From a phage, in sequence record NC_135728.1: a stretch of 64,000 nucleotides of DNA. The stretch is one strand, 5' to 3'. Position numbers and translations under genes: made by a program. Shown piece after piece: positions 1,984 through 52,796 of this stretch; position 1 is the first letter of the stretch, and each line of letters opens with the position of its first letter. The notes below the pieces were generated by a model that saw only the letters and a program-made list of their open reading frames with translations, did no database searches and was not told where the DNA came from.

Positions 1984-2480
1984 TTATTGCGCTCCTTGTA
2001 GTAGATATGGCTCCCGAATTGGGCTGTCCTCTGCATCTTTTTTGCCCATTTCGGTCGTACTTTGGTTGTATGGTAGTGTGTTGCTCCACCTGTTATGTCC
2101 ATAGCCATGTATGCAACATGGTTGTTATTATAGACCTTTAGAAGCATCTTTGCAAGACTTTTAGCGTGATCCCATGAATCTTTTTCTGTCACCTTAAAAG
2201 TTTTGCCGTGGTTTGTCCACGAAAACTGGTTAGGTTGGTAGACAATCTTTCTTATGGTGTCTGGGTATTTGGGGTGAGATTTCCTGTTTAGGGTGGCAAA
2301 CCCAGATGCCAGCATACCCATCGTGCCATCCCCTCTAGCTTCCCTGTAGATATTGCATGCTAGAATGTTTTCCTTAGTATCTGATGGCTTGCAAGTATGG
2401 TATACTTTTTGTTTTGGTGCTGCAACAACAGGCAGCGATAAAAATGCGCTCAAAATAATAGCAAAGATCTTAATTTTCAC
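1980..2480 (-). CDS. secreted cell-wall hydrolase, SleB-like (166 aa)
   Basis: N-terminal signal peptide MKIKIFAIILSAFLSLPVVAAP; NIYREARGDG motif typical of the SleB/cell wall hydrolase family; 4-nt overlap with the downstream gene. Confidence 0.6.
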   Translation of the reverse strand: MKIKIFAIILSAFLSLPVVAAPKQKVYHTCKPSDTKENILACNIYREARGDGTMGMLASGFATLNRKSHPKYPDTIRKIVYQPNQFSWTNHGKTFKVTEKDSWDHAKSLAKMLLKVYNNNHVAYMAMDITGGATHYHTTKVRPKWAKKMQRTAQFGSHIYYKERNK

Positions 2481-2486
2481 AATAAC

Positions 2487-2517
2487 TCCAAATAGAAAAT
2501 CCCCGCCGAAGCGGGGG
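2487..2517 (-). terminator. intrinsic terminator, CCCCCGC-UUCG-GCGGGG hairpin plus U-run
   Basis: Minus-sense stem-loop with UUCG tetraloop followed by AUUUUCUAUUU, directly after the stop of the 2530-2910 gene. Confidence 0.6.
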
Positions 2518-2529
2518 AGGTCTTAGAAA

Positions 2530-2910
2530 TTAATCGTAGTGTGCCAAAATCTCTCCATCGTTGCAAGTTCCCTCTACAAAGTTATGAAGATTCATGCACT
2601 CATCTTGATAGAAGAATTTACCGCTTTTCAGCCGTAAGCCAAACAACTCCGCATCTCCACGATGGCAAGCCTCTACAAGTTCATAGATTTCATACGGCAA
2701 CTCTCCGTCGTCATGGAAGAACCCAGCCTTATCGTTGACATAGATGAAGAAATAATCACTGCTGTCGCAAGCGTCCAATATTTTAAACCAGATTTCATCT
2801 ACATCTTTTTCTCGGATATCGATCACGCAAGTGGAGCTGCATTCGTACTCCTTCTCCGGCTCCTCGGTCAATACCACCAGGTAGTTTCCCCGCTTACCTA
2901 CTTTAGCCAT
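2530..2910 (-). CDS. hypothetical protein (126 aa, acidic)
   Basis: ORF in a tightly packed same-strand array. Confidence 0.5.
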   Translation of the reverse strand: MAKVGKRGNYLVVLTEEPEKEYECSSTCVIDIREKDVDEIWFKILDACDSSDYFFIYVNDKAGFFHDDGELPYEIYELVEACHRGDAELFGLRLKSGKFFYQDECMNLHNFVEGTCNDGEILAHYD

Positions 2911-2919
2911 ACAACCCCC

Positions 2920-4104
2920 TTAAGCTTTAGCCAAAATGGCGCTAAACTCTTCACCAAACTCTTTTACAATCTTCATCAGGTTTGGGTATGCTTTGATCAG
3001 CTGAGCAACAATCTTGTCACGCCCTTTGCCGATAAGCAAGGCATTTCCTAAGGCATTAGGTTTCATCATCGCCATAAAGACTGAGAATACAAAATCTCGG
3101 TTCTCGTCCTTGAAGTTTTCCCAAAGGAAATCGAGGAAGTTTGCCACGCAGCTGACAAGATCTTCGTCTGAGATACTTGCATTTTCCATCATATTACGAA
3201 TAGCGATACAACCTTCAGATCCAAGAATCCACAAAATGTCTGGCTGCTTAGGACCTACGTATTCTTTGCAACCACCTGCCATAATCCGACCGATTTCAGG
3301 TAAATTGCGTTTCTTGGTGTGGTATGTCCAGATCTCTACCGCTGCAGTGTGACCAATAGCACCTTGCAGAAGAACACGGGCCATAGCGTCAGAAATAATA
3401 CCGCTGTCAAAATCGTGCAAGATGTCAGATGCAGCAACCCAAGATCGTGGTGTGGCAAAAGATGGACAATTAATCTCAGCCATAGCCTCATAATTATCAA
3501 TAGCTGATGGAACTCTTTTCAGATACCCAATTACAGAGGAGTGAACCCCGTTGAGGAATGCGTAGTCCTCAATAAACACCTCTGCATTGCTTGTAACCTC
3601 TACAATGATAAAACGGTTAGCCAGAGGGGCTTCGAGCGCCGAAAGAACCGCACCATCTGTAGAACGGTTACCCGCAGCCACAAAAACAGAACCCTTAGGG
3701 AATGCATAGGTGCCGCACTTGTGGTCAAGCATAATTTGCATTGCAACCTTTTGCAGGTAGTTATCTGCATGAGTGAGCTCATCCAGAAAGATAATTCCGC
3801 TCCAGTCAGGATCCGCAGGCCAAAATTCTGGAATTGCAAACACTGTACGTGTAGTTCCATCCGCTTCTACAGGGATAGGTAGCCCAGATAAGTCGGCAGG
3901 ATCTTTATCTGACAGTCGCACGTCAACAAGGTTGTCATCTCGCTCACCGAACATATTATCAGCGATCTGCTTCATCACCTGGCTTTTACCCACACCCATT
4001 GGTCCCAAAATTAGGACAGATCGGCTATGACGTTGGGCAAACTGAATAATAGCTGGCAACTCACGGACAGTGATTTGACCACTTTCGAATACGTTTCTTG
4101 ACAT
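2920..4104 (-). CDS. AAA+ ATPase, MoxR-like (394 aa)
   Basis: Walker A GPMGVGKS and Walker B IIFLDEL; length and layout typical of MoxR/AAA_5 ATPases. Confidence 0.7.
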   Translation of the reverse strand: MSRNVFESGQITVRELPAIIQFAQRHSRSVLILGPMGVGKSQVMKQIADNMFGERDDNLVDVRLSDKDPADLSGLPIPVEADGTTRTVFAIPEFWPADPDWSGIIFLDELTHADNYLQKVAMQIMLDHKCGTYAFPKGSVFVAAGNRSTDGAVLSALEAPLANRFIIVEVTSNAEVFIEDYAFLNGVHSSVIGYLKRVPSAIDNYEAMAEINCPSFATPRSWVAASDILHDFDSGIISDAMARVLLQGAIGHTAAVEIWTYHTKKRNLPEIGRIMAGGCKEYVGPKQPDILWILGSEGCIAIRNMMENASISDEDLVSCVANFLDFLWENFKDENRDFVFSVFMAMMKPNALGNALLIGKGRDKIVAQLIKAYPNLMKIVKEFGEEFSAILAKA

Positions 4105-19376: not shown

Positions 19377-19424
19377 TGTGTTCTCCAGATAAGAAAACCG
19401 CCCCGTCAGGAGCGGTTAGATATA

Positions 19425-21170
19425 TTAACGTTGTGCAATTACTACGTCTACGATATCACCAACACCACAATACGTTAATTGCAGCAAGGTAACACTGTTA
19501 GCCTTGTTGTTAATAACAGGTGTTGCCGACAGGATAGCATACTTATCGTGCAAAGTCACGTTGTGACCTACAGCATCCTGAATTACATAGATAACCGCAG
19601 TGAATGGATAAGGTTTATCTTCCGCTGATGTCCCAGGCCACTGCCCTATTGTAAAATCCCCTTTAGCGTGGACAACATACATACTGGCCTGCCCGTTAGG
19701 TGTCCATGTCCCACTGGCCGCGTCAACCTCCTCTAAATCGAAATCTACCTTCCCTGCGTGGAAAGTGGGGGCAGTGATGGTTTTACCAGCCTCAATTTCT
19801 TGAGAGGTGGTTATCTTACCACTGGAGTTAATGCCATTACAGACAAAGTTGACATTAGAGAAGTCTGGCAGCCATCCGGTCACCGTGCCGGATATTTCAA
19901 GGTTGTGAACAGAGGTGGTGCCAGTCCCTGCTGCGTTTAAACTGACATCTCCATTTACCTGCAAGTTGCGGGTAACGTTGCAGTTTTCAGAGTTTGCAGT
20001 TGTTGCAGTTAAAGTGGTTGTTGTCAGCTCGGTAATTACACCTTTGTTGGCTGTAAGCCCTTCTCCTTCAAAAGTTGCACGCTCATTGACTCTTAAGGTA
20101 TTCAGAGCTATGTTTTGGATAGAGGCCGTACCTCGAATAACTACAGACCCGCCAACCTCCAAATCGCCATTTATCAATGCATCACCCGTGCTTTCAATAT
20201 AGCTAGGGTAGATCATGGTGCCATCGACAGAGTATGTTATCCCTGTAACGGTACCTGTCACCTCAAGGTTCTTAACCCTGGTGGTCCCATCGACCTGCAA
20301 TGTCGGTTCGGTTGCTGCCTTCATGGCATTACCACGAATGTACACGTAGTCAAAAAAGTTATTACCCAGACCATCAAAATGCACATCGTTATTATTAGCC
20401 ACTGGTTTCCCAGAAGTTATAGTGTCAGCTATAACCCTGTGGGTGGACACTTCATGAGGTTGCAGCTCTGTACTTCTCCAGTCTGCATGCTTAGGATCGC
20501 TCCACGCAAAAGTAAGTGTAGAAGTATTTGCCGTGAGGATTAGATTCCTAAAGCGTGCAGTAGAATCTGCCCCATTAACAGGTCCATGCAAGGTAAGGGT
20601 GCCACCAACTATAGTGTTAGCGAGCTCTGTAAGACCTTTTACCACCAAAGATCCTACAGTAACTTTCATCCCCTCCATGGCTTTAAATATGCTATCAACA
20701 TAGTCAACAACAAACTCTGTGTTTGCTATGGACTCTGACTTATCGTCCATTGGAGGTGTAGGTACTCGCGGGTCACCTTCGAACCTTGGGCTGTTAAGTT
20801 TTGCGTAGTATTTTGCCATTACTGCAGAATCGGTATATAATCTCCAGTTTGGAGATTGTGAAGGATCTGCTGGCATTCTAACCGGGTTAGATTTTGATGC
20901 TGCGGGAGCGTACCACCACTGAGGGCCTGTGTCCCCTTTAAACTCGTACAGCTGGTTAAAAACTGTTGTGGATGCACCATACGCCCAAGGGATCGGTGGC
21001 GTTTTAAAATAAAGGGTGTCAAGCATGGCTTTTCGTACCGTAGGGATGGTGGTCCCATCCTCTACGACAACTTCATCCACAGCGTTACCGTTGACAATCA
21101 GGTGCAAACGTTCAGAATCAACAATTACTTGATCTACCGCCTGCTCAAAGCTTGTCATGTCTTGCGCCAT
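19425..21170 (-). CDS. tail fibre/tailspike-like protein (581 aa)
   Basis: Thr/Gly/Asn-rich repetitive beta-strand sequence; position in the fibre module. Confidence 0.5.
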   Translation of the reverse strand: MAQDMTSFEQAVDQVIVDSERLHLIVNGNAVDEVVVEDGTTIPTVRKAMLDTLYFKTPPIPWAYGASTTVFNQLYEFKGDTGPQWWYAPAASKSNPVRMPADPSQSPNWRLYTDSAVMAKYYAKLNSPRFEGDPRVPTPPMDDKSESIANTEFVVDYVDSIFKAMEGMKVTVGSLVVKGLTELANTIVGGTLTLHGPVNGADSTARFRNLILTANTSTLTFAWSDPKHADWRSTELQPHEVSTHRVIADTITSGKPVANNNDVHFDGLGNNFFDYVYIRGNAMKAATEPTLQVDGTTRVKNLEVTGTVTGITYSVDGTMIYPSYIESTGDALINGDLEVGGSVVIRGTASIQNIALNTLRVNERATFEGEGLTANKGVITELTTTTLTATTANSENCNVTRNLQVNGDVSLNAAGTGTTSVHNLEISGTVTGWLPDFSNVNFVCNGINSSGKITTSQEIEAGKTITAPTFHAGKVDFDLEEVDAASGTWTPNGQASMYVVHAKGDFTIGQWPGTSAEDKPYPFTAVIYVIQDAVGHNVTLHDKYAILSATPVINNKANSVTLLQLTYCGVGDIVDVVIAQR

Positions 21171-21179
21171 GATTTCTCC

Positions 21180-21446
21180 TTAAGCTTTTTGCTCTTCGTT
21201 TTTAACGTGGTCAGGGTGCTGGCAACCCCACCGGAGCGAGATGAATTTGCTAATAAGCTGGGGGCAAGCTACTGAAGGCGCGTATATCCACGCATACCAT
21301 TCAGGAAGCGTATCATTATACCCCATATGAATAAACACCCCAGTCATCACCGCCATGCCTATGTTCGACCATAGCTTAGATTGGGACACTTTCGTAGGGT
21401 CATCAGATGCCGCAACCAGTCCCCATAAAAACTGAGTTAGTTTCAT
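21180..21446 (-). CDS. small membrane protein (88 aa), possible holin
   Basis: Hydrophobic segments WSNIGMAVMTGVFIHMGY and WYAWIYAPSVACPQLI; function is inferred only. Confidence 0.35.
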   Translation of the reverse strand: MKLTQFLWGLVAASDDPTKVSQSKLWSNIGMAVMTGVFIHMGYNDTLPEWYAWIYAPSVACPQLISKFISLRWGCQHPDHVKNEEQKA

Positions 21447-21457
21447 TTACCCTCTTT

Positions 21458-22504
21458 TTAAGCATAAGATATAGTGATCCATTGACCATTTACAAGTTTT
21501 TGGATAGCACCTGTCCAGTAATCACCTTGATAAGGGTGTTTATAAGCGTAGTTACCAGAGCACATCACATGTCCAGGGTAGACTCTTGACTCTCTGTAGG
21601 TGGTTTTAAAACGGTTTGCTATCCTTACATCATCAACCCCTCTGCTAGGCATAGGGATAGTAAGGTTACCGCTACTGTCTGCGCCGTTACCATTTACCCT
21701 GCGGACCACGTTTCTTCCACCAACTGTTGCATATTGGCCCCTGACGGTTTCATCGTTACAATCAACTCTTCCACCTATTTGAGCGCTTCCGCAGGATTGT
21801 TGTCCATTAACAGTGGCTCTTGGTATCGTGACCGCATTGGCATTTGCAGAGGAACTTTTTGCATCGTTGCATTCAAGATTTCCTTGGATAGCCAGTCTTG
21901 CACGGTTGGCAGTTATAGCATTGAGCTTCATAGCTGAAAACACAGGCTGCCCACCAGAAGGTTGAAATCTCCAACGGAACCCATCTATTTGGTGAGAAGG
22001 ATCATCAAGGTCTGTGCCGTCAGCACCACCGATGTTGTCCATAATCCAGAAATCCATCGTCGTCTTGTCTGGAGTTATGGTGGTATATATTGCCGCACTG
22101 TCTGTTGACGCAGATGCAAACTCGATTCTTTGAAGACCTAAAGTTTGAGTCTGAGTCATTATGTCTCCAGACTTGTCAACATATAGATCGTCCATTTCTT
22201 CAGGTGAGTATACATTGAGAACTTGACGTGCAGCAGCTTTGTCTGGAACGTCTGCTAGATTATTAGTGACCCTTAAGAATCTATTATCCCATCCTGGGAC
22301 AACATCTTCTGTTAAATGCTTCAACCACGCAGAAAGCATGTGAAGTTCAAAGTTAACAACTTCACATGCCATTCTTTGTGTCATATCCCAACCTTTCAAT
22401 CTCTCTTCTTTTTTTGGTTGAGATTTATTCAACTCTCCCGTATTTTCAAGCACAACATCCTGATTGGCCCAAATATCAAGAGGGATAACTGGTTTAGTCA
22501 TCAC
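21458..22504 (-). CDS. tail fibre protein, paralogue B (348 aa)
   Basis: Shares N-terminal (PLDIWA), central (GPDKTT-DF, LNAITANRA) and C-terminal (QKLVNGQWIT) blocks with 23516-24556. Confidence 0.6.
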   Translation of the reverse strand: MMTKPVIPLDIWANQDVVLENTGELNKSQPKKEERLKGWDMTQRMACEVVNFELHMLSAWLKHLTEDVVPGWDNRFLRVTNNLADVPDKAAARQVLNVYSPEEMDDLYVDKSGDIMTQTQTLGLQRIEFASASTDSAAIYTTITPDKTTMDFWIMDNIGGADGTDLDDPSHQIDGFRWRFQPSGGQPVFSAMKLNAITANRARLAIQGNLECNDAKSSSANANAVTIPRATVNGQQSCGSAQIGGRVDCNDETVRGQYATVGGRNVVRRVNGNGADSSGNLTIPMPSRGVDDVRIANRFKTTYRESRVYPGHVMCSGNYAYKHPYQGDYWTGAIQKLVNGQWITISYA

Positions 22505-22548
22505 GTTCTCCTGAGAAAATTCCTTAGGACTATTTTAACACTTTAGAG

Positions 22549-22580
22549 AACAAAATGCAAGAACGGAGTCCTTTCCGTTC
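22549..22580 (-). terminator. intrinsic terminator
   Basis: GAACGGA-loop-TCCGTTC hairpin followed by a U-rich run in minus sense. Confidence 0.5.
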
Positions 22581-22590
22581 TGACCTTTGT

Positions 22591-22905
22591 TTACCTTTTA
22601 CTATGCTCTACGAGCATGTGCAAAATCTTTTGTACATCAGCTCGGATGCCGGAGACATCTGTCCTGACATCCTGCTTAAGGTCGTTAATATCGGCCTCTA
22701 GCTTGCTTAACCGAGTCTCGATAACGGAATCAAGTCTATCTTTTGTAACCATACTGTTTTTCACTAAGATGAGGTCTTTCTCCAGCTCATCCAACCTCTT
22801 GGAAATGCCTTTCCATTTGGTGTGCCACTGGTTGAAAGCCCATACACAGATCGGGACAACGGTACCCATGCAGATACCGTACAATGCCGCCAAATCCAAC
22901 TCCAC
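22591..22905 (-). CDS. membrane-anchored coiled-coil protein (104 aa)
   Basis: N-terminal hydrophobic segment followed by heptad-rich region. Confidence 0.4.
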   Translation of the reverse strand: MELDLAALYGICMGTVVPICVWAFNQWHTKWKGISKRLDELEKDLILVKNSMVTKDRLDSVIETRLSKLEADINDLKQDVRTDVSGIRADVQKILHMLVEHSKR

Positions 22906-22916
22906 AACACCTCCTC

Positions 22917-23501
22917 TTAGAGGGTAGGTCGCTCCGGGAAGAAAATGTCAGGGGCTTTAGATGTATCTATTTCAAGAAGTTTTACCCTGTACATTTTCAA
23001 ATCTCTGATGTTACGTTTCTGGTCATCAGTAAGATCATATTCAAGGTCAATCATGTCTTGATAGGCACCAATTCTAGCAGTAGCCCAAGCAAGTTCTGTC
23101 TCTATGACACCCTCTGCCTGTTGAACAAAGAATTCATTGTCTGTGACAAATCCATCACCAACTAAACGCAAAGCGTCGTGGTGAAGCGTAATGTTTTCTG
23201 GTACCTCTTCTTTTTTGGCGATAACCACACGGAGACCTGGAGCAGGCCATAAGGCATCAGGTTCTTCTGTAGATGTCTTAAGAATTCCCTTCTCGTCAAC
23301 AAGCAGGAAGATACAACCTGGATTTTCTTGTCGTAATGTTCGTGACTGCACATACCAATCGCCATCATCATTACGTAAAAAATACCCGGTGTATGCGGTG
23401 TAATCCTCAACCTCTTGAGGGGTCAGCTCTTTGGTTTCCTTGTTGGCGTGGTATTCGCCAGATCCCGGTTGGTAAAGTTTAAACTCTTGAAGTATTTTCA
23501 T
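22917..23501 (-). CDS. tail fibre assembly chaperone (Tfa-like, 194 aa)
   Basis: C-terminal motif YRVKLLEIDTSKAPDIFFPERP typical of tail fibre assembly proteins; immediately downstream of a fibre gene. Confidence 0.55.
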   Translation of the reverse strand: MKILQEFKLYQPGSGEYHANKETKELTPQEVEDYTAYTGYFLRNDDGDWYVQSRTLRQENPGCIFLLVDEKGILKTSTEEPDALWPAPGLRVVIAKKEEVPENITLHHDALRLVGDGFVTDNEFFVQQAEGVIETELAWATARIGAYQDMIDLEYDLTDDQKRNIRDLKMYRVKLLEIDTSKAPDIFFPERPTL

Positions 23502-23515
23502 GCTAGTCCTCCGAT

Positions 23516-24556
23516 CTATGCATAATTAACAGTGATCCATTGACCATTTACAAGTTTTTGTAAAGGTCCTGCCCAGTAGGTTGAACCACGCATCTCTTTT
23601 TTGTCACCGAAATGCCAGCCTGTGACAACGTAGCCGTTGCGGATTGGAGATTCAGAAACGCCGTCCACAAGTCTTGCACCGATTCTGATGTCTTGCACAC
23701 CTGTCTGCGGGATAGTGATCGTTACATCACCGTTACCGTTAGCCGTCACTCCGTTCACAGAGCGAACCACATTTCTGTTACCTACAACACAGTGCTGGCT
23801 TCTTACAACCATACTGTCACAACTTGCACCACCATTAACATATACTGACCCAGCCGTCAACTGACTGGCCACATTACAGTTGGTGAATGTTGCGGTATTG
23901 CTGATAGTAAGGTTATTGCACCTCATGTTATCGACAACTTCAACATTGCCTACCACTTTCAACAGCGCACGGTTAGCCGTGATCGCGTTAAGGTACATCA
24001 AAGTGAACTCCGGATTAATATCCGGCTGAGTTGGCTGGAATCTCCAACGAAACGCATCTATTGTAGATGTGCCACCATCATCAAACGCCCCAGTATTATC
24101 ACTTAACCCAAAGTCGAGAGTTGTCTTATCTGGGCCAATAGTTGTCTCTATCCAAGCCTTATCTGTCTCGGCAGCTTTAAAGTTGATACGTTGCAAACCC
24201 AATGGGCCTGTCATTGTATCACCTGTAACTTTTACATACCTGGCGTCTGCCTCTTCCTTAGTAATAATCCCAAGGTTTCTACGGGCAACAGGAATGTTCA
24301 AAAGATCACTCAAGTTATTATCACGTACCAGATAACGGCCTTCTTGAGCGGGGATCTGCTCGTCAGCAATGTATTTTGCCCAAGTTCCGAGCATATTGAA
24401 AATATAGTTAAGTTCTTCACATGAGGGCTTTTGACCAAGATCCCAACCTTTTCTCCACAAATCATCAATCGGGCGTAGCCTGTTCTGTCTGTGGGTGTTA
24501 GGCAGAACCTGATCCTCCTCTGCCCAAATCTCTAATGGAAAACTAGGTTTTGACAT
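23516..24556 (-). CDS. tail fibre protein, paralogue A (346 aa)
   Basis: Paralogue of 21458-22504. Confidence 0.6.
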   Translation of the reverse strand: MSKPSFPLEIWAEEDQVLPNTHRQNRLRPIDDLWRKGWDLGQKPSCEELNYIFNMLGTWAKYIADEQIPAQEGRYLVRDNNLSDLLNIPVARRNLGIITKEEADARYVKVTGDTMTGPLGLQRINFKAAETDKAWIETTIGPDKTTLDFGLSDNTGAFDDGGTSTIDAFRWRFQPTQPDINPEFTLMYLNAITANRALLKVVGNVEVVDNMRCNNLTISNTATFTNCNVASQLTAGSVYVNGGASCDSMVVRSQHCVVGNRNVVRSVNGVTANGNGDVTITIPQTGVQDIRIGARLVDGVSESPIRNGYVVTGWHFGDKKEMRGSTYWAGPLQKLVNGQWITVNYA

Positions 24557-24568
24557 TTTATCTCCTGA

Positions 24569-26641
24569 TTATGAGAAGTCTGGCGGGACAACATCTTCTA
24601 CATACCCTTTCAGAGCAACCTGCCCCATATGAAGCACGGTAGAATCTCTAGCGGTAACAGTGATGCTGTCAGACATTACTTGCGGATATGCCCATACATA
24701 CTGTTTTACCTCAGGGTATCTATACTCTATAGTTGCCATGTTTCCGCAAATACATCTCCATAAAAATTCTTGGTAATTCCTAGTTGGGTCGTAGCCATAT
24801 ACCGGAGCAAGCTCTTTACTAGGAACGAACCCTGCAAGGTATTGTATTTCAGACGGTTGCCAACCTAACTTAACGATAGGTATGTTTACAGACTCTTTTG
24901 CCTTTTCAATACCTCCCTGCATCACCCAATCGTAGCACTCAGTGCAGAAGAAATCAAGAGCACCTGCTTCCTTTTTATATTGGTCAGCAAGGTTCAGCTT
25001 TTGCGTAAGCTCGGTTTCCATAATGGTTGGGAAAAACAGCAAAGCTGTCATCTGAGCTGATGCAGCGTGTGCCTTTATTGCCTTTGAAATGGCCGCAATA
25101 CGAGCGCCAAGCTTACCACGACAAAATGCTACATACTTGTCGTAAACACCGCCAGTTTTAGGATCGTCAATAGTCCCAATATCTAATGCATACTCACCTG
25201 TCTCATCATAAAACGCCTGCTTTGTAGGGTAATCATAAATACAAGGTCTACGAGTATCGGTATTGTACCACCACCACGGTTCACCAACCTGCATAATCAC
25301 TGGCAGGTTGTTTCTCATAGCGGCTGATGCAAAATTCTTAAATACTGCAGTAAGGAAATTCATACCCTCTTCAATGGTTGGAGACAGGAGGTAGCTACAG
25401 GGTGTATACCCTGTTTTAGCGTAGTTATCGTTCCAGTCTCTTTGGGTCCATTCCAACGGGCAGGCATCGCTGAAAAGCTCAAAACTTACAGATTGCATAA
25501 CGTCGAAGTTATGTCGTTTGGCATTGTACATAAAATCATCATGCCATTTATAAGCTGCAGCGTTTAGCGCCCCTGTTCTGTTTATAGACCATTGGGTTCC
25601 TGACCATGTGTAGTCATAATAATGACTCATACCAACATAATGGTTTATGGTTCCGGTATAGCCCAGACGCTTGATATTGTTCAACACCCTTAAAGGAGAT
25701 ACGTTCCACATATCGTCATATGCGGTGCAGATCCCAACGTCGTGCTCTTTAACCTGAATATTGTTAAGTTGCATCATTTTCCAGCCTGTGTCTGGCTGGA
25801 GCAGATCTAGGCGCAACTCACACTCTACATTTTCCGTTCTCGGGTCTGTGCTATTACTTACCCAGTCTTTAGGCATAAGCGGTATTAAAATCCTTCTCAC
25901 CTGTCGAGGATCAACACCCATCATGTTGTTGTTCTGATCCATCCCGACGCAGTCCTCGAAATCAATATGAATCTCTGCAACATTCTTATCCTCTGAGATG
26001 CTGACAGCATATTGAGCTAAAGGAACATAGATGATTGTGCCATCAACAAGGTCTACAGTCATAATCATCTTTTCAGGGGTGGAGAAGTTGCTGGCATTGG
26101 TTATTGACATTCTGAACCAAAGCTTGGTGTTTCTCATCTCATAGTGATCATCAAACCCAATACCGAAATGGTCATACTTGTCAACTGTTTCCCAAATGCA
26201 CCCAGCCATACCTCCATATGTTCTTGACACTAAACGGTTAATACAACAGTTGTCATCTGCAACAATACAGGTACTTTCAGTCTGCTGAGTGGTTGTAACC
26301 CAATATCTTGGGTGAAACATTCTCTCCTCAACAGTATCCCAGGATATCCTGTCAAGATTCTCATCTGAAACTATTGTACATTTCGCCCTTTGTGTTCCAA
26401 TCATCACCCCTTGAGATTTTGATGAAAACTCCATAAAGAAGCTTCTTGGCAACCTGTTGGGTAATTTGTCAACAATTTCCACAGGGATCTCAATACTGGT
26501 TGCCCCAATTGGGATAGTTACATCGCCCTCAACATGATTATAATCCCTACCAGGAACGGCAGTATCCTGAACTGTTCGGTAATGAAACTGTGCAGCCATT
26601 GTAGAGTAATCACGGTAAGGTTTAAAAACAGCTGTTGCCAT
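24569..26641 (-). CDS. tail/baseplate-associated protein (690 aa)
   Basis: Large ORF in baseplate module; no diagnostic motif. Confidence 0.45.
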   Translation of the reverse strand: MATAVFKPYRDYSTMAAQFHYRTVQDTAVPGRDYNHVEGDVTIPIGATSIEIPVEIVDKLPNRLPRSFFMEFSSKSQGVMIGTQRAKCTIVSDENLDRISWDTVEERMFHPRYWVTTTQQTESTCIVADDNCCINRLVSRTYGGMAGCIWETVDKYDHFGIGFDDHYEMRNTKLWFRMSITNASNFSTPEKMIMTVDLVDGTIIYVPLAQYAVSISEDKNVAEIHIDFEDCVGMDQNNNMMGVDPRQVRRILIPLMPKDWVSNSTDPRTENVECELRLDLLQPDTGWKMMQLNNIQVKEHDVGICTAYDDMWNVSPLRVLNNIKRLGYTGTINHYVGMSHYYDYTWSGTQWSINRTGALNAAAYKWHDDFMYNAKRHNFDVMQSVSFELFSDACPLEWTQRDWNDNYAKTGYTPCSYLLSPTIEEGMNFLTAVFKNFASAAMRNNLPVIMQVGEPWWWYNTDTRRPCIYDYPTKQAFYDETGEYALDIGTIDDPKTGGVYDKYVAFCRGKLGARIAAISKAIKAHAASAQMTALLFFPTIMETELTQKLNLADQYKKEAGALDFFCTECYDWVMQGGIEKAKESVNIPIVKLGWQPSEIQYLAGFVPSKELAPVYGYDPTRNYQEFLWRCICGNMATIEYRYPEVKQYVWAYPQVMSDSITVTARDSTVLHMGQVALKGYVEDVVPPDFS

Positions 26642-28829: not shown

Positions 28830-28862
28830 GTCACTCCTCCGGTATGAAAATCTCTACAAGGT

Positions 28863-28891
28863 ATTTTACCAAATTTTGTAACAATAGTCAA
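28863..28891 (-). promoter_or_regulatory. sigma70-like promoter with extended -10 (TTGACT-N14-TGGTAAAATA)
   Basis: Hexamers with 17-bp spacer between the upstream terminator and the GTG start at 28829. Confidence 0.5.
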
Positions 28892-34102: not shown

Positions 34103-34133
34103 TGTGCCTCCAGGTTAAACAATCATGATAGTT

Positions 34134-34162
34134 ATTTTACCAGATTTTAAGTTAATACGCAA
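34134..34162 (-). promoter_or_regulatory. sigma70-like promoter with extended -10 (TTGCGT-N14-TGGTAAAATA)
   Basis: Shares the TGGTAAAATA motif; sits between a terminator and the gene start at 34102. Confidence 0.45.
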
Positions 34163-49202: not shown

Positions 49203-49245
49203 TTTATAGCATCCTTATTAGTCATGTTGTGCACCATATTTGTGT

Positions 49246-49274
49246 ATTTTACCATGATTATGGTGCATTGTCAA
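49246..49274 (-). promoter_or_regulatory. sigma70-like promoter with extended -10 (TTGACA-N14-TGGTAAAATA)
   Basis: Consensus -35, 17-bp spacer and TGGTAAAATA, upstream of the chaperone and tape measure genes. Confidence 0.55.
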
Positions 49275-52761: not shown

Positions 52762-52767
52762 TAATGT

Positions 52768-52796
52768 ATTTTACCACAAAGATACATCAAAAGCAA
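52768..52796 (-). promoter_or_regulatory. sigma70-like promoter with extended -10 (TTGCTT-N14-TGGTAAAATA)
   Basis: Fourth copy of the TGGTAAAATA motif, upstream of the 52291-52761 gene. Confidence 0.45.

Follow-up and report, generated by a model that had tools for sequence, protein, structure and literature searches.

Gene content and identity of the locus

The locus described here, which lies within the window (the whole stretch of 64,000 nt of phage DNA that was analysed, record NC_135728.1), encodes two short tail fibre paralogues, hereafter A and B, a tail fibre assembly chaperone and two further small proteins, and carries a terminator-like hairpin and a promoter-like motif ahead of B (Table 1). 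By nucleotide comparison, rV5-like Vequintavirus phages are ~98.6% identical to the window: an 8-kb query matched phages nom, FFH2 and MaxTheCat at 98.6% and rV5 (V5) at 98.3%, with 110 records reaching at least 80% query coverage. The gene order of the locus is the same in annotated rV5-like genomes, and orthologues of both fibres, at 98-100% amino-acid identity, occupy two places per record in approximately 115 Vequintavirus records. The closest described counterpart is the rV5 series gp33/gp32/gp31/gp30 (BASEL Bas57 genes 0034-0037), which corresponds to the window locus gene for gene, in unchanged order and at ~98-99% identity, with few amino-acid differences and nothing substantive otherwise.

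Table 1. Features of the short tail fibre locus, in the order in which they are read on the minus strand.
Feature	Coordinates	Strand	Basis
Short tail fibre paralogue A (rV5 gp33 orthologue), 346 aa	23516..24556	-	ORF; phrog_4465
Tail fibre assembly protein (rV5 gp32 orthologue), 194 aa, Mu gpU / lambda Tfa family	22917..23501	-	PF02413
ORF31, 104 aa, a single hydrophobic helix at the N-terminus, the rest coiled-coil-like	22591..22905	-	phrog_5345; overlooked in the preliminary description
Terminator-like hairpin just 3' of ORF31, then TTGCATTTT	22560..22581	-	Consensus scan; fold -16.2 kcal/mol, z -4.6
Promoter-like motif TGTTAAAATA, ~30 nt upstream of paralogue B	22531..22540	-	One mismatch to TGGTAAAATA
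Short tail fibre paralogue B (rV5 gp30 orthologue), 347 aa from ATG	21458..22501	-	ORF; phrog_4465
ORF29, 88-aa membrane protein directly 3' of paralogue B	21180..21446	-	phrog_1322

Two paralogous short tail fibres

As the preliminary description of this DNA had proposed, the two fibres are paralogues: they align end to end with 154 of 356 positions identical (43%, E 7e-95), and both give full-length matches to phrog_4465 (A at E 2.4e-171 over profile positions 1-342 of 342, B at E 2.1e-166). Its picture of conserved blocks separated by diverged stretches also agrees with the alignment, in which identity is patchy, at 55-65% over residues 1-20, 101-160, 181-200, 261-280 and 321-346 and at 20-35% over residues 21-100, 201-260 and 281-320. 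Among the blocks it had listed as shared, LNAITANRA (residues 189 and 193 in the two fibres) and QKLVNGQWIT (residues 333 and 334) are present in both proteins, whereas PLDIWA occurs only in the protein encoded by 21458-22504, the 346-aa protein reading PLEIWA, and GPDKTT is restricted to the 346-aa protein, its counterpart having TPDKTT. The second fibre ORF likewise stands, but the length of 348 aa given for it, counted from a GTG at 22504, is most likely one residue too long: this GTG is GCG in rV5, whereas the ATG at 22501 has an AGGAG 6 nt ahead of it and is the most likely start, and public records annotate the protein as 347 aa.

Judged by its sequence matches, A has an N-terminal baseplate-attachment domain, followed by a shaft and central domain, and ends in a tip that resembles Mu gpS and is of the ancestral type. 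Residues 1-108 match the short tail fibre of phiTE (9CUY, chain c) at E 1.3e-19, or 1.8e-34 with the family profile, and residues 286-343 match Mu gpS (5YVQ) at E 1.9e-6, or 9e-13 with the profile, the tip being 36% identical over 61 aa to Mu gpS residues ~438-503. The family profile also matches Mu S' (8JU3) at E 4.5e-6, and A is annotated as 'short tail fiber protein' in phage MaxTheCat. B shares this architecture as a faster-evolving copy with a derived tip loop: its N-terminus matches 9CUY at E 1.1e-9, its tip alone matches Mu gpS weakly (E 0.008), and the tips of A and B differ mainly in one loop, which reads TGWHFGDKKEMRGS in A and CSGNYAYKHPYQGD in B. No NCBIfam model matched any protein of the locus. 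AlphaFold2 monomer models of the fibres, built from a 32-sequence alignment, were of low confidence (mean pLDDT 63 and 59, pTM ~0.3), and when the low-confidence model of the first fibre was compared with the PDB by Foldseek, no match fell below E 0.4; given the poor quality of these models, we draw no structural conclusions from them.

Chaperone and neighbouring genes

The Tfa-like chaperone that had been placed after the first fibre is borne out by a Pfam Caudo_TAP match of 45.8 bits against a curated cut-off of 22.1 (E 8e-12, residues 122-192), by a match to phrog_136 (E 1.4e-35) and by pairwise BLASTP alignments with Mu U and U'. The protein starts 14 nt past the stop codon of fibre A and ends in ...SKAPDIFFPERPTL. 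It does lie between the two fibres, but not as the only gene there, since ORF31 and a 90-nt intergenic region separate it from B. ORF31 matches phrog_5345 (E 1.5e-48), to which no function is assigned, and is 32% identical to PVP-SE1 gp44 (E 2e-23); it stands next to the chaperone in all Vequintavirinae-like IMG/VR loci that reach past the fibre gene, and its rV5 counterpart is listed as a membrane protein with one TMD (rV5 Table S3). Direct phmmer searches of the PDB with the chaperone and ORF31 returned chance-level matches only.

ORF29, on the far side of B, matches phrog_1322 'membrane protein' (E 2.7e-32) and is 56% identical to PVP-SE1 gp42 (E 5e-34), and its position is also conserved among single-fibre relatives. 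It is not a chaperone; the Caudo_TAP gene is the sole gene of its kind in the locus, and none follows fibre B. In Mu, Tfa is retained by the mature fibre, to which its variable N-domain binds while its conserved C-domain trimerises (PMC9608196). Gene adjacency and the detection of gp32 in rV5 preparations suggest that tip folding depends on the gpU-type chaperone here and that the tip retains it. A single chaperone may serve both fibres, which for B we infer only from the shared C-terminal block.

Candidate regulatory signals upstream of the second fibre

The interval between ORF31 and B contains two candidate regulatory signals. The TTGCATTTT that follows the hairpin is invariant in three lineages. 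The hairpin itself is weaker in the divergent lineages L008 and L006; only the window-type sequence folds strongly, and covariation across lineages is unconvincing. The promoter-like motif TGTTAAAATA is built like an extended -10 element, and TGGTAAAATA, from which it differs, is the rV5 late-gene motif (PMC3606486). The window contains 22 motifs of this late-gene type where 5.95 would be expected, and 20 of them lie on the minus strand; TG(T/C)TAAAATA is invariant in the window, rV5, L008 and L006. Copy B has a conserved promoter-like motif of its own, placed after the hairpin.

Receptor and proposed mode of action

We put at about 80% the probability that the locus is an rV5-type short-tail-fibre module made up of fibres A (rV5 gp33) and B (rV5 gp30) and one Mu-gpU/Tfa-type chaperone (rV5 gp32), working in the following way. 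Each fibre would dock onto the baseplate wedge via its conserved N-terminal domain, and the Mu-gpS-like tip of each would need the chaperone for folding and trimerising, the chaperone probably remaining bound at the tip as it does in Mu. Lateral fibres would engage the primary receptors first, and both short fibres would then touch the LPS core, the terminal receptor. In this lineage one loop and the pre-tip segment set the tips of A and B apart, so that they probably recognise two core-glycan variants. The homology, intactness, selection, gene order and regulatory motifs behind this reading were computed, and the presence of the proteins in the virion and the dependence on the LPS core are taken from the literature.

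A waaG-dependent glucose of the LPS core is reported as the terminal receptor in the rV5-like group, waaC and waaG being needed by LL12 and the BASEL Vequintavirinae and waaF additionally by LL12 (PMC7229145; PMC8594841). Two LPS chemotypes were proposed for the rV5 fibre pair by Kropinski 2013 (PMC3606486). According to Maffei et al. (PMC8594841), waaG dependence is common to all tested phages, considerable allelic variation is confined to the three largest lateral fibre genes, and the short-fibre locus is without allelic variation between Vequintavirus genomes; given this uniformity, one receptor fits as well as two. We therefore regard A and B as baseplate short fibres for an LPS-core terminal receptor and not as classic host-range fibres; the broader or switched host range that the preliminary description had expected from the pair is conjectural.

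Alternative readings and the evolution of the pair

If there is a single receptor, the two fibres could be positional or structural paralogues that bind it from different baseplate positions or at different steps (two rings, or alternating sites) and that are kept for architecture and not for receptor range, a reading that we consider possible, if on the unlikely side. In an L006-type sister lineage, represented by five contigs, A and B carry tips of ~90% identity on bodies of only 23-57% identity, which suggests exchange of tips between the paralogues and implies that differing tips are neither general to the pair nor required for its retention; in the window lineage and in L008, however, the tips clearly differ, at ~45% identity and with one loop replaced. 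An architectural role would also agree with residues 31-90 being the most paralogue-specific part in all lineages (27-37% identity between A and B, against 73-87% conservation between orthologues of A and 53-90% of B), although both copies retain the N-terminal residues that are invariant across the family, which points to a common mode of docking. The common waaG-dependent glucose and the lack of allelic variation (PMC8594841) fit such a role too, but RBPseg 2025 (PMC12143355), which describes low-resolution cryo-EM density for the short-fibre class in Bas54 and Bas49, reconstructs no more than three fibres close to the baseplate of Bas49/Bas54 and fits only one short-fibre model (RBP04).

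Instead of being chiefly alternative specificities, the two fibres could also form a fixed pair that swaps tips by gene conversion, anchored in the window on a 30-nt block that is identical at the 3' ends of A and B, with B playing a distinct structural or temporal role on the baseplate; we hold this combination to be doubtful. The pair itself goes back to one old duplication common to at least two lineages. Copy B occupies the site of a four-TM membrane gene of single-copy relatives, of which no remnant was found in the window (best tblastn E 0.96), and its identity to single-copy homologues is 28-43%, with 37-49% for A.

Decay of one copy, or its lack of expression, which the preliminary description had itself raised as a point against its reading, is very improbable. 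The sole hint of it is that B evolves faster than A (orthologue identity of 78% vs 87% to L008 and 48% vs 73% to L006). Both ORFs, however, are intact in approximately 115 phage records and in divergent lineages, where they are kept down to 48-73% identity, and dN/dS relative to rV5 is 0.08 for A and 0.05 for B, values by which both copies are under strong purifying selection. B moreover has a Shine-Dalgarno sequence in addition to its conserved promoter-like motif, and gp30 and gp33, together with gp32, were detected in rV5 by total phage proteomics (main text of Kropinski 2013, PMC3606486); no mass-spectrometry entries for gp30-33 were found under those names in the rV5 supplementary files, and we relied on the detection given in the main text.

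A host-range switch like that of the Mu G segment or the P1 C segment, in which the two fibres would be expressed alternately, has in its favour the homology of fibre tip and chaperone to Mu S/S' and U/U', but we rejected it as scarcely credible, as A and B both lie on the minus strand with a complete N-terminus in each, there is a single chaperone gene, both rV5 products were found in virion preparations (PMC3606486), and no inverted repeats flank the fibre genes within 20500-25500, where the one inverted pair is a chance-sized 16 nt inside coding sequence.

Significance

Paired short tail fibres with a chaperone have already been published for rV5-like phages, in 2013 and in 2021: the paralogy of rV5 gp30 and gp33 was given as 42.3% by Kropinski 2013 (PMC3606486), and Maffei 2021 (PMC8594841) described the genes as a pair of short tail fibre paralogues together with a chaperone of the Mu GpS/GpU-like type. 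The finding of the pair and its chaperone by itself thus brings no new biology. Absent from the published accounts that we found are the purifying selection on both copies, and also the shared old duplication, the replacement of the four-TM gene, the separate promoter-like motif of B and the likeness of the tips in the L006-type lineage. The duplication, the replacement, the motif and the homogenisation of tips in the sister lineage offer concrete constructs for functional tests. In therapy and biocontrol directed at E. coli, rV5-like phages are frequent candidates, and fibres that address the terminal receptor therefore matter for the prediction of resistance and for phage engineering.

Comparison with known systems

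Phage T4 uses the chaperone gp57A and not a Tfa-type protein. Its gp12 is a functional analogue of the fibres described here, being a baseplate fibre that binds the LPS core as terminal receptor (PMC8594841), and HHpred similarity of gp30 and gp33 to T4 gp12 was reported by Kropinski et al. (PMC3606486). We did not reproduce this similarity at the sequence level, as no T4 gp12 chain was recovered in PDB searches with single sequences and with the profile (E up to 1).

The C-terminal ~60-residue tip of Mu gpS/gpS' (5YVQ, 8JU3) is homologous to the fibre tip, and gpU/gpU' align along the length of the chaperone, share its C-terminal motif and are likewise encoded directly downstream of the fibre gene. 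Mu has one constant N-terminal part and two alternative sets of tip plus chaperone on opposite strands, served by the Gin invertase. In the window, by contrast, both fibre genes are complete and run in the same direction, there is a single chaperone gene and no inversion, and the N-terminal attachment domain is not that of Mu.

In the single-fibre loci of the Vequintavirinae-like phages PVP-SE1 (gp46-gp42), KB57 and phiTE and of phi92 (gp147-149, Stephanstirmvirinae), a homologous fibre (~30-48% identity) is accompanied by a chaperone gene and by genes like ORF31 and ORF29, arranged as in the window, but there is one fibre only. The short tail fibre of phiTE, whose residues 3-92 the 9CUY model places on the baseplate wedge, is a longer fibre with a coiled coil, in a phage reported to be flagellotropic. 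Among the Vequintavirinae-like single-fibre loci, nearly all carry a 157-aa gene with four TM segments (PVP-SE1 gp43) exactly at the site that fibre B occupies in the window.

Gene content of the fibre locus

The gene pair reported in the preliminary description is real, correctly located and correctly typed. Fibre A (a short tail fibre orthologous to rV5 gp33) and its paralogue fibre B (rV5 gp30) both match phrog_4465 over their full length and align end to end at 43% protein identity (E 7e-95). The conserved blocks and diverged intervening stretches described for them are borne out by identity as high as 55-65% at residues 1-20, 101-160, 181-200, 261-280 and 321-346 and as low as 20-35% at residues 21-100, 201-260 and 281-320. 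LNAITANRA and QKLVNGQWIT are shared as stated; PLDIWA is specific to fibre B (fibre A reads PLEIWA) and GPDKTT to fibre A (TPDKTT in fibre B). Structure predictions of the fibres as monomers gave poor models.

The interposed assembly chaperone (orthologous to rV5 gp32) is Tfa-like and carries the C-terminal motif, as proposed, but a second interposed gene, ORF31 in rV5 numbering, had been overlooked. The second fibre, given as 348 aa, has its ORF, although the ATG is the likelier start since rV5 reads GCG at the GTG position and AGGAG lies 6 nt 5' of the ATG.

Features of the fibre locus
Feature	Position	Strand	Description
Fibre A	23516-24556	(-)	346-aa ORF, first in transcription order
Chaperone	22917-23501	(-)	194-aa ORF; C-terminal end SKAPDIFFPERPTL; Pfam Caudo_TAP match above threshold
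ORF31	22591-22905	(-)	104-aa ORF
Gap between ORF31 and fibre B			90 nt
Hairpin in gap before B	22581..22560	(-)	-16.2 kcal/mol, z -4.6
TGTTAAAATA	22540..22531		after hairpin and TTGCATTTT
Fibre B	21458-22504 from GTG	(-)	348 aa; 347 aa from ATG at 22501 (likely start)
ORF29	21180-21446	(-)	88-aa ORF
ORF28	19425-21170	(-)	581-aa ORF
Terminator-like site	19417..19396		after ORF28; terminator in HdK5 annotation

ORF31 has one N-terminal hydrophobic helix and is otherwise coiled-coil-like. All the Vequintavirinae-like loci examined that reach so far have it 3' of the chaperone (homologues at L012:5686-6000, in the PVP-SE1 locus, and L014:1523-1864, in another relative). The corresponding phi92 protein, gp149, bears the annotation 'lipoprotein' and has a weak match to an Rz-like spanin PHROG (E 8.8e-4). 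On the 5' side of fibre A, a 690-aa protein (24569-26641 (-)) with Calx-beta, NCTSP_N and NCTSP TIM-barrel domains resembles N4 gp65 (E 4e-80); phi92 has a homologue, gp142, and the gene is absent at the corresponding position in PVP-SE1 and KB57. A 2026 preprint names this fibre as the receptor-binding protein for the NGR polysaccharide.

Origin of the duplication

In PVP-SE1, KB57 and ~20 IMG/VR contigs we observed a single-fibre order of fibre, chaperone, ORF31-like gene, a 157-aa protein with four transmembrane segments (4-TM), ORF29-like gene and lateral fibre. All two-fibre loci are without the 4-TM gene and have fibre B in its place; no remnant of it was found in the window. The fibre B region (21458-22590) corresponds in position to PVP-SE1 gp43 (L012:5997-6470), a phrog_7451 member unannotated as to function, and genes of the gp43 type occur in nearly all single-fibre relatives, flanked by those for the ORF31-like and ORF29-like membrane proteins.

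In a neighbour-joining tree of residues 1-285, all A copies form one clade and all B copies another, and the two clades unite to the exclusion of the single-copy homologues, which indicates one duplication, before the window-type and L006-type lineages diverged. Identity to the single-copy proteins is 37-49% for fibre A and 28-43% for fibre B.

History of the fibre tips

One divergent two-fibre lineage, the L006 type (L006, L019-L021 and L026; L006 paralogues at 116-1156 and 2190-3254), has A and B tips that are ~90% identical over the last ~56 residues on bodies of 23-57% identity, and in the tip tree its B tips fall beside the A tips from the same genomes. It looks as if the paralogues had exchanged tips or undergone gene conversion, and not recently, since the tips share only ~80% DNA identity. 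In the window, the A and B tips are ~45% identical and the A-type tip loop TGWHFGDKKEMRGS, found also in PVP-SE1, becomes CSGNYAYKHPYQGD in fibre B. The extreme 3' ends of the two genes are 84% identical over 62 nt, and within these a 30-nt exact match (21473-21502 and 23531-23560) encodes QKLVNGQWIT with all ten codons the same; judging from sequence, tip recombination could be anchored there.

Intactness and putative expression signals

A degraded or unexpressed copy, which the preliminary description had named as the outcome that would count against it, can be rejected: both copies are intact, with dN/dS against rV5 of 0.08 (A) and 0.05 (B), and nearly every Vequintavirus record (~115) gave two places of match in a tblastn search. 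The whole arrangement is also kept in L008, another two-fibre lineage (identity 87% for A, 78% for B and 77% for the chaperone), and in L006 (72.5%, 47.8% and 46.9%). A Mu-like invertible switch is also rejected, a scan of 20500-25500 having found no inverted repeats around the fibre genes.

The hairpin before fibre B is much weaker in L008 and L006. The elements that follow it, TTGCATTTT and TG(T/C)TAAAATA, do not vary between the window, rV5, L008 and L006, despite diverged flanks, and TGTTAAAATA differs at one position from the rV5 late-gene motif TGGTAAAATA. With one mismatch allowed, the window contains 22 instances of this motif where 5.95 would be expected, and the minus strand carries 20 of them. 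The motif is shaped like an extended -10 element, with examples at 28862-28871, 34133-34142, 49245-49254 and 52767-52776 (-); the first, an exact copy, lies ~33 nt upstream of an ORF36-like baseplate gene. From these motifs we infer two late transcription units, one from ORF36 through ORF31 and one comprising fibre B, ORF29 and ORF28.

Source phage and published record

Over 8 kb round the locus, identity is 98.3-98.6% to >100 rV5-like Vequintavirus genomes, including nom, FFH2, MaxTheCat (Bas57) and rV5, in which the counterparts are ORF33 (A), ORF32 (chaperone), ORF31, ORF30 (B), ORF29 and ORF28. Some 16-21 GenBank records titled 'Campylobacter phage', host Campylobacter jejuni (MG065655, MG065658, MG065661 and others), are ~98% or more identical across the locus to E. 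coli rV5-like phages; probably the host labels are wrong or the isolates are contaminating coliphages.

The gene pair and the functional speculation around it are already known for rV5-like phages, since the Kropinski, Maffei 2021, LL12 and RBPseg studies cover them. Kropinski et al. found rV5 gp30, gp32 and gp33 in total phage proteomics. In the BASEL annotation, both fibres go by the name 'short tail fiber protein' and the 194-aa product by that of 'tail fiber chaperone'. Maffei et al. (2021) described two paralogous short tail fibre proteins with a chaperone in Vequintavirinae sensu stricto, a set with homology to the phi92 locus and, ultimately, Mu GpS and GpU; from genome to genome they saw no considerable allelic variation in the paralogues, and no tested Vequintavirinae member succeeds on waaC and waaG mutants (PMC8594841). 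Work on LL12 traced the requirement to the first outer-core glucose (PMC7229145), and the RBPseg study fitted a fibre-class model (TC1) to low-resolution Bas54 cryo-EM density and remarked on the Mu-like C-terminus of that class (PMC12143355). Variation among rV5-like phages has been put down in the literature mainly to the large lateral fibres. The idea that two alternative receptor-binding fibres may affect host range is a published hypothesis; the distribution of the duplication, its single old origin and the tip history were not found in the publications consulted.

Proposed role and comparison with known systems

The best-supported of the readings weighed is that fibres A and B are virion components which would dock via a conserved N-terminal joint, that the single Tfa-type protein would fold the Mu-type tips of both, and that the LPS core would be the terminal receptor of both, the differing tip loop possibly conferring two glycan specificities in the window lineage. 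Its main rival holds that the pair is retained for architecture, serving different baseplate positions or steps; the near-identical A and B tips of the L006-type sister lineage, the paralogue-specific N-terminal region (residues 31-90) and the uniform waaG dependence all favour it.

In phiTE, the residues matched by the fibre N-terminus form the joint attaching to the wedge. Among solved structures, residues 1-108 of fibre A resemble the phiTE short tail fibre in baseplate model 9CUY (E 1.3e-19; fibre B, 1.1e-9; a 32-sequence profile, 1.8e-34). At the other end, the last ~60 residues of fibre A match Mu gpS (5YVQ, E 1.9e-6; profile, 9e-13), the profile also matches the Mu S' construct 8JU3 (E 4.5e-6), and the fibre B tip alone matches Mu gpS weakly (E 0.008). 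According to a summary of the Mu work (PMC9608196), the mature fibre retains Mu Tfa, which binds it through a variable N-domain and trimerises through a conserved C-domain. That split fits the position of the chaperone's Pfam match at residues 122-192. Of the single-fibre order, phi92 has only the first part (fibre, chaperone, ORF31-like small protein), with a colanidase tailspike next. Over most of its length, the chaperone aligns with Mu U (24% identity, E 1e-4) and U' (25%, E 1e-6), and it has the C-terminal FPE(R/Q)P motif in common with both.
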